Source of the DNA: an uncultured Clostridia bacterium
GTDB taxonomy: Bacteria; Bacillota; Clostridia; TANB77; CAG-508
Assembly: GCA_934167835.1 (NCBI GenBank)
Contig: CAKPLZ010000003.1
Location: 11,426 to 75,425, forward strand
DNA length: 64,000 nt
Direction: 5' to 3'
The notes beneath the pieces are model-generated. The model saw nothing but the letters and a program-made list of their open reading frames with translations. It made no database searches and had not been told where the DNA came from. Below, piece after piece: positions 4,742-31,353 of this stretch. The first letter of the stretch is position 1. Every line of letters begins with the position of its first letter. Position numbers and translations under genes: made by a program.

Positions 4742-6138
4742 TTACAGATTTACATAAAGTGCGGAGCGACTACCGAAAGCCGGGGCTGCTGTTGGTCGGA
4801 ATGCGGTAGTAACGATAACTAGCTGAAAGGCTGTAGCGGTAATCGCCGACCCCTGTCAACTCGACTATCTGAAGAGTAGGACTCTGTAGTCCATTCCCAA
4901 ACATTGCCTTCTAAGTCATATACATTTTTTGAAACATCCTTATATGAACTCTTGTCTGCGTAATCTAAGCCTGCTGTCTGCCATGGTCCATCACTATAGC
5001 TTCTATTGTGTAAAGCATATCCTGTATTTTTTACATTATAACTTTCAGTATTTACAAACTCTAACACTTGGTCATGGCATGCTCCGAGTATCATACTACT
5101 TTTTACTCCACTTAAATTTTTATTTGCTGAATATGCTTTTTGTTGTCCATACATATAGTACCAATTTACATTGCTTATTCCTGTCTTTGTTCCAGCTATT
5201 ACTTTTACTGCTGTATTTGCATTTTGCGTCATATTGCTTGTTTCATATCTTCCTACCCAAAATCCTTCTGCATTATATATACTTTTTACGATTTCATTGT
5301 ACTCTGTTTGTAATGTTTTTTTGAATTCATTTGCATTTGCATAACTTGGACTATCTCCTGTTACTGTTGCTATGTTTTCTAAATAAGTAGAACTTGCATC
5401 ATAGCTTGTTCCAGTACTTCCTGTTACTACATCTGGCTCCCTTAAACCGCTGTTTGGTGTATATACTTCTGTATATGCTTTCTTATAGTAGTTTTCTCCT
5501 GTCCTTGTTGCATATAATCTTCCTGCCATTTGTTTTGAGTTATGGGTTGTACATGTTGCAGCTCCATTTTTTACAGTTATATTACATTTATCGTTTAGTT
5601 CCTCTTTTGCCTGGCAAATGAACATATCATTTATTTTTGTATGTGAAATTGGTATCCACACAAATTGGTCATATTTTGTTCTTAAGTCTGCTACTGTTTC
5701 TTCGTTACTCCAGTCTATTGCTTTTATTTCTTCTTCTGTCCATGATGTACCATCTTCTTTTTTATCTATTAAGTATATTACTAATCCACCATCTACTGTT
5801 TTTTCTGTTCCTGCACCTGATACTGTAAAGCCTGCTGGGATTACTGCTGTCTCGTATTTTGAAGTTTCAGTTGCTTTTTCTCCTGCTTTTATTTCTGGTA
5901 ATTTTACTTTACCTTCTAAATAGTCTTCTATGATTGAATAAGTTTTATCCCCTATTTTAATTTCAGACCCAGCATTTGCTTCTGCATCTTGAGCTGATTT
6001 CCAGTTTTTTGTGGCGTCTCCTGCTGACTTAAATAGTCCTGTGTTTAGTGCTACGCTTATGCTGACTGCTACTAGTATTAGCATTACAATTATTGTGATT
6101 ATTAACGCTATGAGCGTTATTCCTTTTGTGTTTTTCAT
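4742..6138 (-). pseudogene. prepilin-like N-terminus / FGE (SUMF1, DUF323)-like C-terminal domain protein, paralog A; frame interrupted twice at in-frame CGG (as assembled the ORF stops at 4819)
   Basis: N-terminus KGITLIALIITIIVMLILVAVSISVAL (class III signal / pseudopilin-like); C-terminus GNVWEWTTE...RVDRG then +1 frame GDYRYSLSASYRYYRIPTNSSPGF, +1 again GSRSALYVNL*, matching paralog B ...SFRAALYVSL*. Confidence 0.7.
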
Positions 6139-6455
6139 GAATTAAATCCTCCTTAAATTTTATTTTATATAACCTTTTGTTATATCTATATATTTTTAAA
6201 ATTAACCTAACTGTACTCATGGTGGACATGATTGTCTTACCATATATATTTTGTACATTAGATTAATTCTTAGTCTTTTATATTTTATATATAGTTTATT
6301 TTTTATAAAATTATCGATATATATATATATATATATAGGGCCCCAAGGCTTTCAGCGATTTTCATTGGTTAGTTTCTCCTTTTTTCGTTTCTTTTCGTGC
6401 TTTTGTTTTTTGCTTTTTGTAAAGCTAGTATATATTATTAATATTTTTCTGTCAA
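6139..6455 (-). promoter_or_regulatory. promoter (TTGACA-17-TATACT) plus about 290-nt leader of paralog A, containing a conserved small uORF (MKIAESLGALYIYIYID...) that harbours a (TA)10 tract
   Basis: -35/-10 hexamers read at about 6450-6455/6427-6432; leader blocks conserved with paralog C leader (31354-31652). Confidence 0.45.
6317..6337. repeat. (TA)10 dinucleotide microsatellite inside the leader uORF of paralog A
   Basis: atatatatatatatatatata read directly. Confidence 0.9.
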
Positions 6456-6480
6456 TACTTTTTACAAATTTTTTAATATA

Positions 6481-6505
6481 AAAGCTAGGATTGCTCCTAG
6501 CTTTT
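6481..6505 (-). terminator. ftsH terminator hairpin AAAGCTAGGA-ttgc-TCCTAGCTTTT
   Basis: Perfect 10-bp palindrome immediately after ftsH stop. Confidence 0.6.
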
Positions 6506-6506
6506 A

Positions 6507-28713: not shown

Positions 28714-29778
28714 TTAATTTTCTTCATTTCCTTTAAGTTTTTCTGCCCTATCTGCTGCAATTAGGTTGTCTATCATTTCATCTAAATCCCCATTTAAGAA
28801 ATTTTCCATTTGGAATATACTAAACCCAATTCTATGGTCTGTTATTCTTCCTTGTGGATAATTATAAGTTCTAATTTTCTCGCTTCTATCTCCTGTTCCA
28901 ACTTGACTTCTTCTTTCATTGTGAAGCTCTTCATCTTGTTTTTGTTTTTCTATTTCATATAATCTTGATTTCAACAATCTCATTGCATATTCTCTATTTT
29001 GTGTTTGAGAACGCTCTGTTTGACATTCTGCTACAATTCCTGTTGGTTCATGAATTAATCTTACTGCTGATGATGTTTTATTAACCTTTTGTCCACCTGC
29101 ACCTGATGCTCTAAAAACTTCCATTCTAACATCTGCTGGATTTATTTCTATTTCAACATCTTCTACAACTGGCAAAACTGCAACTGTTGCTGTTGATGTA
29201 TGTATTCTTCCACTGCTTTCTGTATCTGGAACTCTTTGAACTCTGTGAACTCCACTTTCAAATTTTAATCTACTATAAACACCTTTTCCTGATACCATGA
29301 ATGTAACTTCCTTGTATCCACCCATTTCAGTTTCATTTTCATTTAAAATCTCAATTTTCCAATGTTTTGCTTCTGCATACATTGTGTACATTCTAAATAA
29401 AGTTCCTGCAAATAAAGCTGCTTCTTCTCCTCCAGCTCCTGCTCTAATTTCACAAATTGTATTTTTATCATCATCTGGATCTTTTGGAATTAACAATACT
29501 TTTAATTCTTCTTCAAGCTGAGGAATTTTCTCTCTAAGCTCATCCATTTCAGCCTCTGCAAGCTCTCTTAACTCTTTATCACTTGCCATTATTTTAGCTT
29601 CCTCAAAATCAGCTTTAGCTTTTTTATATTCTCTATACTTAGAAACAACATCCTCAAGCCCAGCATGCTCCTTCATAAGCTTCTGCCATTCCTGAGTTCT
29701 AGCAATCACCTCAGGATCACTAATCTTTGTTGTTAACTCATCATACCTTTTTTCAACATCCTCTAATTTTTGAAACAT
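28714..29778 (-). CDS. prfA: peptide chain release factor 1
   Basis: GGQ motif [23 protein letters not shown]; RF1-type [17 protein letters not shown] and [16 protein letters not shown]. Confidence 0.9.
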
Positions 29779-29935
29779 AAACTCTCTCCTTAATTTAATT
29801 TATACTAAATAATTATATACCATTTTCCGTGAATTTACAAGGTTTTTGCTATAATTCTTGGCAAGGCTATGAATGAATGTTAAAGTCACAAACAAAAAAG
29901 TAAAAAAGCACCAAATCTTTATAACACTTCTATTA

Positions 29936-29996
29936 TTACATGCAACAAAAAACGCCTACTGGCGCCTTTGATTGGCGAAAATTTTCCTCTTGGAAA
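29936..29996 (-). terminator. tandem hairpins downstream of paralog C (GGCGAAAATTTTCC-aagag-GGAAAATTTTCGCC, then AGGCGCC-agta-GGCGTTTTTT), a copy of the element at 4612-4675
   Basis: Direct reading; about 90% identical to the paralog A 3' flank over about 150 nt. Confidence 0.6.
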
Positions 29997-30061
29997 ATTT
30001 TCGCCCTATTACTCCTAATTTTGCTGTCCTAAAACTACTTCCTGCTATTTTTTACTGTATC

Positions 30062-31353
30062 GCCTGCTGTCTTACAAATTCACATAAAGTGCTGGACGGA
30101 AACCAATTGAGTCACTGCCGCCTGCTGGTCCGTTATTGATTCTTATGCTAGCTGGAAGATCATTACGAGTAAAGCCTTTATTTCCGGCCCCTGCAAACTC
30201 GAAGATCTGTAGTGTAAGCCTCTGTAGTCCATTCCTCGCAGTTACCTGCTACATCATATATATTTTTGGCTGAGTTTCTAACTGTTGCTCCTGTTGTTAG
30301 TAAGTTTCCTTGCATTACGTCTGTGCCATTTGTTTTATCAGCTGAACTCCAATCTGAAAAGCCACATAAACTTCCTCTAAAAATCTTATATGTGTCTGAA
30401 TCATAATAATTTCCCCAACCTATACTGCTTGTTACGTCATGATCTTTATCTTTTATAAAATCTAGCATAGTGTCCCAGCAAGCTCCTGTACATAACATAC
30501 TGGTTGCTCCATAATTTGGTTTTGATGCATTATATAAACTGTTTGACAACGCTACTGCTCCTACTTCTCCAATATCACTCGTGCTTTCTCCCCATTCTAC
30601 AAAGTTATATGGGTACATGTCTTGTTTTATGCCTATTACTGTTTTCTCAGTTGTTTCACTTGTTCTTGGGCTTTCGCTTCCGGCTTCATATCTACCTATA
30701 TAAAATCCTCCATATTTATATACGCTTTCAGTTAAAATTGCTATTTGACTTGCTATTCCTGTTGCTGCATCATCTGTTGCGCTGGGTTCTGTATAAGATA
30801 CGTCAAGCCCTTCCATTCTTGCATTATTTGACCATGCTGATCTGTAAAAATTTGCTATACTAGTTTTTGTATCTGTTGTCTTATTTACTTCTACTGGTAT
30901 CCATACAAATTGATTATATGCTGTTTTGACAGTATCTGGTTTTGTCCAGTCTGGTGTTATTCCTTCTGGTATATCATATATTACTAGCCCTCCATCTATT
31001 GTTGTTTCACCCTCTATGCCTGATACTGTAAATCCTGCTGGAATCCATGCTTTTTTTACACCGTCCGTATATTCTTTGGTATCGCTAAATCTTTTACCTT
31101 CATCTTTTGTTGATGTTTTTGTGTTCTCAATATACTCTTCTAGACTACCATAAGTTTTATCCCCTATTTTAATTTCAGACCCCACATTTGCTTCTGCGTC
31201 TTGGGCTGTTTTCCAATTTTTTGTTGCATCACTAGCTGATTTGAATAATCCTGTTTTTAATGCTACACTTATGCTTACTGCTACTAGGATTAACATTACA
31301 ATTATTGTGATTATCAACGCTATAAGCGTTATTCCTTTCTCTTTGTTTCTCAT
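30062..31353 (-). pseudogene. prepilin-like N-terminus / FGE-like C-terminal domain protein, paralog C; frame interrupted once at in-frame CGG 30184-30186 (as assembled ORF stops at 30178)
   Basis: RVCRG then +1 frame GNKGFTRNDLPASIRINNGPAGGSDSIGFRPALYVNL*, matching paralog B C-terminus RVCRAGNYDD...SFRAALYVSL*. Confidence 0.7.

Follow-up and report, generated by a model that had tools for sequence, protein, structure and literature searches.

In this study, three paralogous genes, termed A, B and C, were analysed in a 64,000-nt stretch of DNA (the window) from an uncultured Clostridia bacterium (GenBank assembly GCA_934167835.1, contig CAKPLZ010000003.1, positions 11,426 to 75,425 of the forward strand). 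Their products are very probably modular type IV pilin-like surface proteins of uncultured gut Clostridia with lectin tails varied by diversity-generating retroelements (DGRs), and in the window they look like orphaned targets of such elements. The proposed architecture has three parts: a pilin module of ~75 aa (short basic leader, invariant Gly, hydrophobic helix, small beta hairpin), a paralog-specific middle spacer, and a C-terminal FGE/SUMF-type domain of C-type-lectin fold, the last ~45 codons of which would form the variable region (VR). In sister strains, a cassette 3' of A and of B would rewrite the VR from cDNA that is derived from a template repeat (TR) and carries randomised adenines. 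The type IV pilus (T4P) machinery may present the protein, probably in few copies or on the tip of the pilus; its diversified lectin surface could bind changing ligands. A full-length A or C would further need a +1 ribosomal shift at a rare CGG codon; otherwise truncated products would result.

A pilin-like head and a predicted lectin-type tail

The G+C content of the window is ~30%, and the three genes and the upstream elements of A are laid out as follows.

4819..6138, minus strand: paralog A as encoded, 439 aa; pilin-like head, middle, and FGE/C-lectin-like domain shortened by a frame break
5905..6138, minus strand: head of A, codons 1-78; class III signal-like KG/ITLIALIITIIVMLILV (the slash marks the putative cleavage point) and small pilin module
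6427..6455, minus strand: promoter-like site of A, TTGACA-17-TATACT, sigma-70-like, ~290 nt 5' of the ATG
23981..25468, minus strand: paralog B, 495 aa, the sole single-frame copy; head, Ig-like beta-rich middle, helical linker, FGE/C-lectin-like domain
30178..31353, minus strand: paralog C as encoded, 391 aa, with the C-terminus RVCRGRK

The original prediction, made from the letters of the window, described three paralogs with a near-identical N-terminus and an FGE/SUMF-like tail. The resemblance is real. A head of ~75 aa is common to A, B and C, with 61 of the 68 first residues of B identical in all three copies in a three-way alignment, and at the nucleotide level the heads constitute a 237-nt repeat family (D1) with 82-84% identity. 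The common blocks IPAGF...QFVW(I/V)P, GGFYI.RYE and NIYD.AGN.WEWTTE were all found in the three proteins, the middles of which are mutually unrelated. As had also been described, the neighbours are unrelated housekeeping genes (ileS and ftsH adjoin A, leuS and maf adjoin B, and prfA adjoins C), and each copy has its own promoter, TTGACA-17-TATACT for A and readable TTGACA-containing promoter-like sequences 5' of B and of C. The ends that had been assigned to A (4742) and C (30062) need correction: the encoded stops are at 4819 and 30178, the longer open reading frames (ORFs), for which the frameshifts had been passed over silently, require read-through of a +1 break at 4845-4854 in A and at 30183-30192 in C, and the restored frame of C stops at 30072. 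Nor is this a family of three members. In a clustered library of 1.8 billion proteins, 6120 cluster representatives give a match to the head (E<=1e-3), and related metagenome-assembled genomes (MAGs) have many copies each; the relatives recovered were UMGS1740, UMGS1640, MAGs from rabbit, goat and human, and Candidatus Scatovivens.

A, B and C start with M..(K/R).KG/ITLIALIITIIVMLILVAVSISVAL, that is, with a short basic leader ending in Gly at -1, followed by ~20 hydrophobic residues. Among 68 family proteins of related MAGs, this Gly (G7) is invariant, and both the GITLIALIITIIVML core and the series G-I-T-L-I-A-L-I-I-T-I-I-V-M-L-I-L are invariant or nearly so. Eleven of the 68 proteins consist of the head only (80-90 aa). 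Outside the window, T4P genes were found around such head-only short pilins, which lie inside pilM/N/O–pilD-like–pilB–pilT–pilC operons at 12 loci of related gut Clostridia. At one of these loci (L036), the gene order is PilM/N-like (549 aa), a 229-aa protein, a 135-aa protein, an 83-aa pilin, the PilD-like protein, a 163-aa minor pilin, pilB, pilT and pilC; the 83-aa pilin scores 22.2 bits with Pfam N_methyl (PF07963), above the cut-off of 21.2. T4P genes also occur 5' of C itself in a near-identical strain: in L082, which is 99.94% identical to the window, the C ortholog sits directly 3' of pilB-pilT-pilC (T2SSE-T2SSE-T2SSF). Other members of the family carry the head fused to BspA-LRR, DUF285, LRR_8, Glug, Big_2 or FGE-sulfatase domains. 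Judged by its context, that is, by the T4P linkage at 12 related loci and in the near-identical strain, the head of A, B and C is a predicted pilin module, and the claim of a prepilin-like head with Ala at +5 was borne out. The accompanying idea of adhesin display on a pilus would agree with the published concept of the 'modular pilin' (PMC8179133).

Some observations count against a pilin module. Position +5 of the mature protein is Ala in A, B and C and Ala or Val throughout the family, including the short pilin of the operon; Glu is absent. N_methyl gives 14.4-17.5 bits on A, B and C, under the cut-off, and reaches E<=1e-3 in 7 of the 68 family members. The PilD-like protein of the operons matches A24_N_bact with E ~1e-30; Peptidase_A24 is unmatched even at E<=1, and the catalytic Asp positions are altered (GGID, GGIE or FKE, and GTKEE). 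As this protein has the A24 N-terminal domain alone, cleavage of the leader stays putative. The window itself holds neither pilus genes nor a prepilin peptidase, and the linkage is drawn wholly from related strains and MAGs. The missing Glu, the sub-threshold N_methyl scores and the lack of a detectable peptidase domain, together with the scatter of A, B and C among housekeeping genes outside any pil operon in the window, would also fit a head that is a signal anchor or signal peptide unrelated to pili. The proteins would then be membrane-anchored or Sec-secreted DGR variable proteins, like the lipoprotein targets TvpA and LdtA, and the co-occurrence with pil genes would be incidental. This is improbable in view of the (near-)invariant Gly(-1) and core of the 68 members, the head-only proteins within pil operons at 12 loci, the C ortholog directly 3' of pilC and the short pilin above the N_methyl cut-off.

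Genes for PilD-like proteins that lack a Peptidase_A24 match were observed at L036 (6269-6940) and also in L043, L027, L028, L049, L055 and L070, and some copies encode 195-223 aa.

For the tail, a C-terminal profile made from nine diverse tails (A4) was compared with PDB and matched SUMF2 (2.9e-8), FGE (~3e-5), TvpA (1.1e-4) and also PorK/GldK, which upholds the FGE-like tail that had been recognised; the matches cover the last ~60 residues, and a less diverse profile (A8) performed more weakly than A4. The Pfam FGE-sulfatase model reaches up to 1.6e-9 in some relatives, and its scores for A, B and C (22.8, 15.9 and 13.7 bits) are all below the cut-off of 23.3. The catalytic Cys pair of true (human) FGE is located between RGG and GFR. 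In A, B and C, the stretch from R(G/A)G to GFR contains no Cys, and no other part of the protein varies more among orthologs. With this stretch hypervariable and free of Cys, an enzymatic FGE role, which had been left open, is unlikely for these tails; the tail is, on the strength of its profile matches, a predicted C-type-lectin/FGE-type variable domain of a DGR and not an enzyme. The assignment of the fold rests on sequence profiles over these ~60 residues, and the structural results tell against it to the extent that no confident model was obtained: AlphaFold2 gave a pLDDT of 59 for full-length B and 46 for the B tail, which was not modelled usably, and Foldseek against PDB returned weak Ig-like matches to the middle only, none <1e-3. 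A and C as encoded, moreover, are without the last strands of the lectin fold.

Template-derived variation and missing cassettes

In ~95 orthologs of B, the body is 58-97% identical to B, and the last ~50 residues vary with an NNC/NNT codon pattern over the fixed scaffold ES.SSS.RV.RGG.Y...GF..PAY.R...SA..S....SFRSALYVSL. The ~45 final codons, and not the middle, hold the hypervariability of the family. Cassette-style swapping of the middle, which had been expected, does not agree with this, since the B orthologs retain their middle; and the original prediction, which had proposed recombination between paralogs, missed the diversifier, a DGR with adenine-specific differences between TR and VR.

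A metagenome scan with the conserved 3' end led to the sister strain L091. Downstream of B, this strain has bAvd, the gene of a reverse transcriptase of 334 aa (RT; motif IGNYTSQ…YFRYMDD, with an RVT_1 match) and a TR. The flanks of L091 and of L145 are 97% identical to the window. Via RT homologs a second cassette was found at the A locus, directly 5' of ileS, with a MutS_I-like gene, bAvd, RT, TR and orf81; the strains that carry it share 97% identity with the window around ileS. Between sbcC and a traG-like gene there is a third cassette, the target of which is A-like (L147). The RTs of the cassettes have the IGxxxSQ...YxDD motif and RVT_1, and bAvd and MutS_I genes adjoin them. In a family member of L021, 15 of 15 differences between VR and TR fall at TR adenines, and the other pairs compare as follows.

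TR of L091 against its own VR: 20 of 46 adenines changed, 0 of 79 non-adenines
TR of L091 against the VR of L085: 26 of 47 adenines changed, 0 of 80 non-adenines
TR of L091 against the VR of B in the window: 21 of 47 adenines changed, 8 of 80 non-adenines, plus a 3-nt insertion (one extra codon)
TR of L145 against the VR of A in the window: 21 of 45 adenines changed, 2 of 80 non-adenines (C+G 0/54, T 2/26)
TR of L147 against its own VR: 14 of 47 adenines changed, 0 of 77 non-adenines

The corresponding elements of the window are these.

4758..4882, minus strand: VR of A, homologous to the TR of cassette L145/L146
4725..4747, minus strand: conserved hairpin over or just after the stop of A (CTGTAAGCTTGAAGGCGATACAG), repeat D3; candidate DGR target-recognition element
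23997..24124, minus strand: VR of B, from a TR like that of L091, decayed
30088..30219, minus strand: VR-like region of C, with non-NNC codons, identical in the strains seen
23709..23893, minus strand: junction at the B locus, 185 nt, in place of the 2.3-kb bAvd-RT-TR cassette of L091
23506..23697, minus strand: orf81 homolog, the last cassette-associated gene in the window; the gene is normally 3' of the TR

By these comparisons, the VR of A looks almost pristine, that of B looks decayed, and that of C appears to have no known template. For the conserved 3' flank, which includes the small hairpin at the stop codon, a putative role as a signal in DGR homing is the best explanation. The orf81 homolog of the window has 59% aa identity to the 81-aa cassette gene, which shows sub-threshold SSB/OB-fold similarity (E=0.013).

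Homologs of RT, Avd and MSL were searched with tblastn and a TR with blastn, and none is present in the 64-kb window. Loss of the B cassette through VR-TR recombination was considered and rejected because B still has a VR-type 3' flank. With no cassette in the window, A, B and C look orphaned and their VRs frozen, and their exact products are unchanged across several assemblies. Our conclusion is that the three proteins are targets of DGRs and that their VRs are currently frozen in this strain lineage; a trans-acting cassette elsewhere in the genome would alter this view. The DGR reading is weakened by the absence of DGR genes from the window, which leaves A and B linked to DGRs via sister strains, and by C, for which a matching TR was not found.

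Several further observations concern DGR parts in related genomes. In the cassettes L145-L149, a protein of ~140 aa with MutS domain I (PF01624, E=5.7e-9; e.g. L147:4249-4668) is encoded 5' of bAvd and appears as an accessory gene of these Clostridia DGRs. The DGR of L021 is otherwise a textbook case, but its reverse transcriptase (8621-9566) is divided between two ORFs, and these are encoded on the other strand from the target. L147 has an extra A-like target and a full DGR cassette inserted after sbcC, just 5' of a TraG/VirD4-like block. L005 (7225-8000) holds a truncated DGR RT (141 aa) and an Asn-rich TR-like ORF of DUF1566-like VR type, directly 3' of an FGE-type family gene, and looks like a decayed cassette; the Asn-rich ORF was rejected as the TR of the adjoining FGE-type gene, as no repeat connects the two. 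A guessed TR pattern, searched in viral contigs, gave zero matches.

The +1 break at a rare codon

The frame of A and C breaks within the variable region, and B has an in-frame counterpart of the site.

4845..4854, minus strand: +1 break of A, AGG-GGT-CGG-C (AGGGGTCGGC), in the VR; the same in the TR
4766..4775, minus strand: second TR-encoded break of A, CGG-TAG-TCG, a stop right after GFR in the VR frame
30183..30192, minus strand: +1 break of C, AGG-GGC-CGG-A (AGGGGCCGGA); the +1 frame continues to GFRPALYVNL and its stop at 30072
24095..24103, minus strand: in-frame site of B, AGG-GCC-GGT, reading R-A-G in place of R-G-G

As encoded, A ends with RVDRGRRLPLQPFS and C with RVCRGRK, and the terminal ALYVNL of A is in the next frame at 4742-4762. 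The break is encoded in TRs as well, as AGGGGTCGGC in L145/L146 and as AGAGGCCGGC in L147; the TRs of the B-type L091 and the distant L148 are in frame. GG[C/T]-CGG is found in 30 of 39 unique close-clade VRs, and the VRs with a +1 site belong to several paralog groups (by our reading of their differing 3' VR ends) and at least three species-level MAGs. Approximately 30% of the B-family alleles listed end in 'RGR…'. Of 114 new matches to the tail profile, a scripted classing placed 59 as frameshifted or without a recognisable tail and 52 as in frame.

Sequencing error was excluded as a cause. The exact 439-aa product of A is present on 6 contigs from at least three samples, the truncation of C recurs in an independent assembly (the same shortened product is found in strain L082 and as P0272), and dozens of metagenome contigs, as well as TRs, contain the site. 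An alternative genetic code was also excluded, as the long neighbours (ileS, leuS and a nonribosomal peptide synthetase (NRPS) gene) read through under table 11.

One explanation of the break is programmed recoding, in which the ribosome would pause at the rare CGG after GGY and shift by +1, with a minority of full-length product containing R-G-G...GFR and a majority of truncated product. The low stoichiometry would suit a tip or minor pilin, and this reading would refine the modular-pilin explanation rather than replace it. CGG, which the inserted base creates, is the rarest codon, with 3 occurrences in 14,871 codons (0.2 per 1000), and skipping of that base (a cytosine) restores the canonical R-G-G motif of the FGE family. 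The break is template-encoded in cassettes with intact genes, and the VRs of these cassettes differ from their TRs solely at adenines, which indicates that diversification went on after the insertion. The prevalence of the site (30 of 39 unique VRs), in several paralog groups and at least three species-level MAGs, points the same way. In the TR of L145, the AAY codons change phase at the site, with 3 in frame 0 before it and 13 in frame +1 after it, and in C, L004 and L147 no stop interrupts the +1 frame before the conserved end. For +1-type genes, dN/dS of the body is 0.40-0.42 over dS of 0.6-0.86, a level of purifying selection on par with that of the in-frame pairs (0.39-0.45). These facts argue against simple pseudogenes, and programmed +1 frameshifting, which they fit, is plausible.

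On the other side, the shift is predicted from sequence alone, and there is no known stimulator at the proper spacing; a conserved structure is impossible downstream, where the sequence is hypervariable. Re-pairing of tRNA-Gly from GGY to GYC would be poor, A requires a second event at CGG-TAG, and in-frame alleles and TRs are also common (L091, L148; the 52 in-frame tails against ~59 frameshifted or tail-less ones). The AAY phase may be a relic of an in-frame ancestor, and a DNA-level constraint from the TR could mimic conservation. The A of AGG is retained in 38 of 38 cases; this is uninformative because retention is just as high (36 of 38) for a synonymous A in the neighbouring CGA. On balance, we hold programmed recoding tentatively, a little short of an even chance.

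A different explanation is that the break is an OFF state, with A and C silenced or decaying and only in-frame copies such as B functional. A single insertion in a TR would then have been copied to every VR served by that TR. The products of A and C as encoded are 16-45 residues short and end in junk tails of variable length, and the strain of the window has lost the cassettes at A and B. The identity of the three products across several assemblies, hence static VRs, the second TR-encoded stop of A and the site of B (AGGGCCGG), which could have arisen from a +1 allele by repair of one base, would also fit an OFF state. However, the +1-type bodies have stayed open over dS up to 0.86 at the dN/dS (0.4) of in-frame copies, and the cassettes with +1 TRs keep RT, bAvd and MSL intact, their VR/TR pairs differing at adenines alone. 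The configuration also persists across species-level divergence in the majority of sampled VRs, and in C and L004 the +1 frame runs without a stop as far as the conserved GFRPALYVNL, although a DNA-level TR or homing constraint may impose this conservation. We rate an OFF state as somewhat less likely than recoding. What these two explanations leave falls to other outcomes, e.g. functional truncated products.

Taken together with programmed recoding, the modular-pilin explanation would extend to a lineage of gut Clostridia that shows DGR-diversified lectins on type IV pilins, and in most of these systems an obligatory template-encoded +1 break at the almost unused CGG would make each new VR depend on programmed frameshifting. 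This extended statement is a possibility to which we give less credence than to recoding as such.

Strain variation, surroundings and known systems

Recombination between paralogs, part of the original prediction, stood at the head and fell at the middle. The heads are homogenised within the genome, as A, B and C share one head version and most B orthologs have another, and a breakpoint lies at codon ~6 of C.

31335..31353, minus strand: recombination breakpoint where the C head starts; the 99.94% identity with L082 extends to 31335, beyond which L082 has another leader

The identity with L082 spans ~17.4 kb and breaks at L082:4134, and there the C body follows the different leader directly 3' of the pilus genes. 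That the sequences part exactly at the start of the head indicates that paralog heads recombined very recently. A 94%-identical Hadza-derived strain (L085:12682-13983, compared with 29857-32636 of the window) has an unrelated 378-aa gene without a pilin head in place of the C segment; the replaced segment comprises C, the 55-aa ORF called 5' of C, a 164-aa ORF and a sigma70_r2 gene.

Rfam at gathering thresholds gave zero matches in the window, so the 5' leaders of the paralogs correspond to no known riboswitch, and no tRNA genes lie within the window. The leaders of A and C (~6306-6365 and ~31400-31563, minus strand) have in common a ribosome-binding site and a small upstream ORF, which is of 20 aa in A, where it enters a (TA)n run at ~6315-6337, and of 55 aa in C; the leader of B is unrelated. 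The small ORF with (TA)n was dropped as a family feature because, in all loci searched, no leaders other than those of A and C have the motif. Elsewhere in the window, a plus-strand island with reversed GC skew (38999-48316) encodes a condensation-domain protein (a 410-aa ORF, 395 aa as called), then a 2103-aa NRPS with a reductase-type end, and also a 597-aa seven-transmembrane histidine kinase. On the minus strand at 48346-51070, a TraG/VirD4-like coupling protein (507 aa) is encoded beside small unannotated ORFs.

DGRs are densest in the human gut. The pilus-linked DGR targets that we found in the literature belong to type V pili of Bacteroides, and here the carrier would be a type IV pilin, in uncultured small-genome Clostridia and in a protein family with thousands of unnamed members. 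The pilin system itself would be unusual, with Glu5 missing even in the putative major pilin and a PilD-like protein without a recognisable protease domain. The strains constitute a natural series: the cassette is present or absent at the same locus between flanking genes that are 97% identical, VRs are pristine, decayed or without a known template, and head-mediated rearrangements put a cargo gene behind a pilus operon. If the break is decoded, recoding would be coupled to targeted hypermutation, which would be truly surprising and would explain why gene callers truncate many of these proteins. If it is not decoded, a single template mutation can switch off all targets of that template.

Among known systems, the breaks of A and C resemble prfB (RF2) and rare-codon sites in that a +1 shift would occur at a slow 0-frame codon (CGG, or CGG-TAG at the second site of A), with a G-rich, Shine-Dalgarno-like AGGGG just 5' of the site. 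Unlike in prfB (CUU-UGA-C), the spacing and the shifty codon differ, and the site lies inside a retroelement template and is known from sequence alone. The tails are like FGE/SUMF1 (PF03781) in their GN.WEWT...R(G/A)G...GFR motifs and profile match (~3e-5) and unlike it in that the RGG-GFR segment is hypervariable and, in all three paralogs, lacks Cys, and that the Pfam scores are below the gathering cut-off. The entry IPR005532, which appears below, we take to stand for the SUMF/FGE domain.

TvpA is a lipoprotein of a diderm. As in TvpA of Treponema denticola (PDB 2y3c), the VR of A, B and C would lie at the C-terminus of a C-lectin fold like that of FGE, and adenine-specific TR/VR differences, bAvd and an RT with an SQ motif are common to both systems. 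The proteins described here differ from TvpA in their pilin-like anchor, in having several strain-variable cassettes per species at different paralogs, and in the TR-encoded frame break. DGR targets with an FGE-type C-lectin fold are already known, e.g. in the DiGReF survey (PMC3521204).

In Bacteroides, the tip adhesins of type V pili have a DGR-diversified C-lectin head (bioRxiv 10.1101/2024.11.15.621889). As in that system, a gut bacterium would carry a DGR-diversified C-lectin head on a pilus, with strain-variable cassette content; in contrast, the Bacteroides pili are of type V, are built from lipoprotein precursors by strand exchange, and belong to a different phylum. Type IV pilins and frameshifts have zero occurrences in the text of bioRxiv 10.1101/2024.11.15.621889, and the literature searches, incomplete in coverage, turned up neither DGR-targeted type IV pilins nor a frameshift encoded by a TR.

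Modular type IV pilins have been described in S. sanguinis (PilB/PilC; Raynaud et al. 2021, PMC8179133), and Dataset S1 of PMC8179133 gives the architecture IPR012902-IPR005532 in 8 proteins; the paper describes no DGR link. A, B and C are like these modular pilins in combining a small N-terminal pilin module with a grafted C-terminal binding module, with T4P linkage in a monoderm. They differ in the head, which is without Glu5 (as is the putative major pilin) and has a module of ~75 aa, in the graft, which would be a DGR-diversified lectin fold, and in the many paralogs outside the pil operon. Thus, DGR targets with an FGE-type C-lectin fold and modular pilins are each already known, and their predicted combination in type IV pilin-like proteins appears to be new as far as the literature covered shows.

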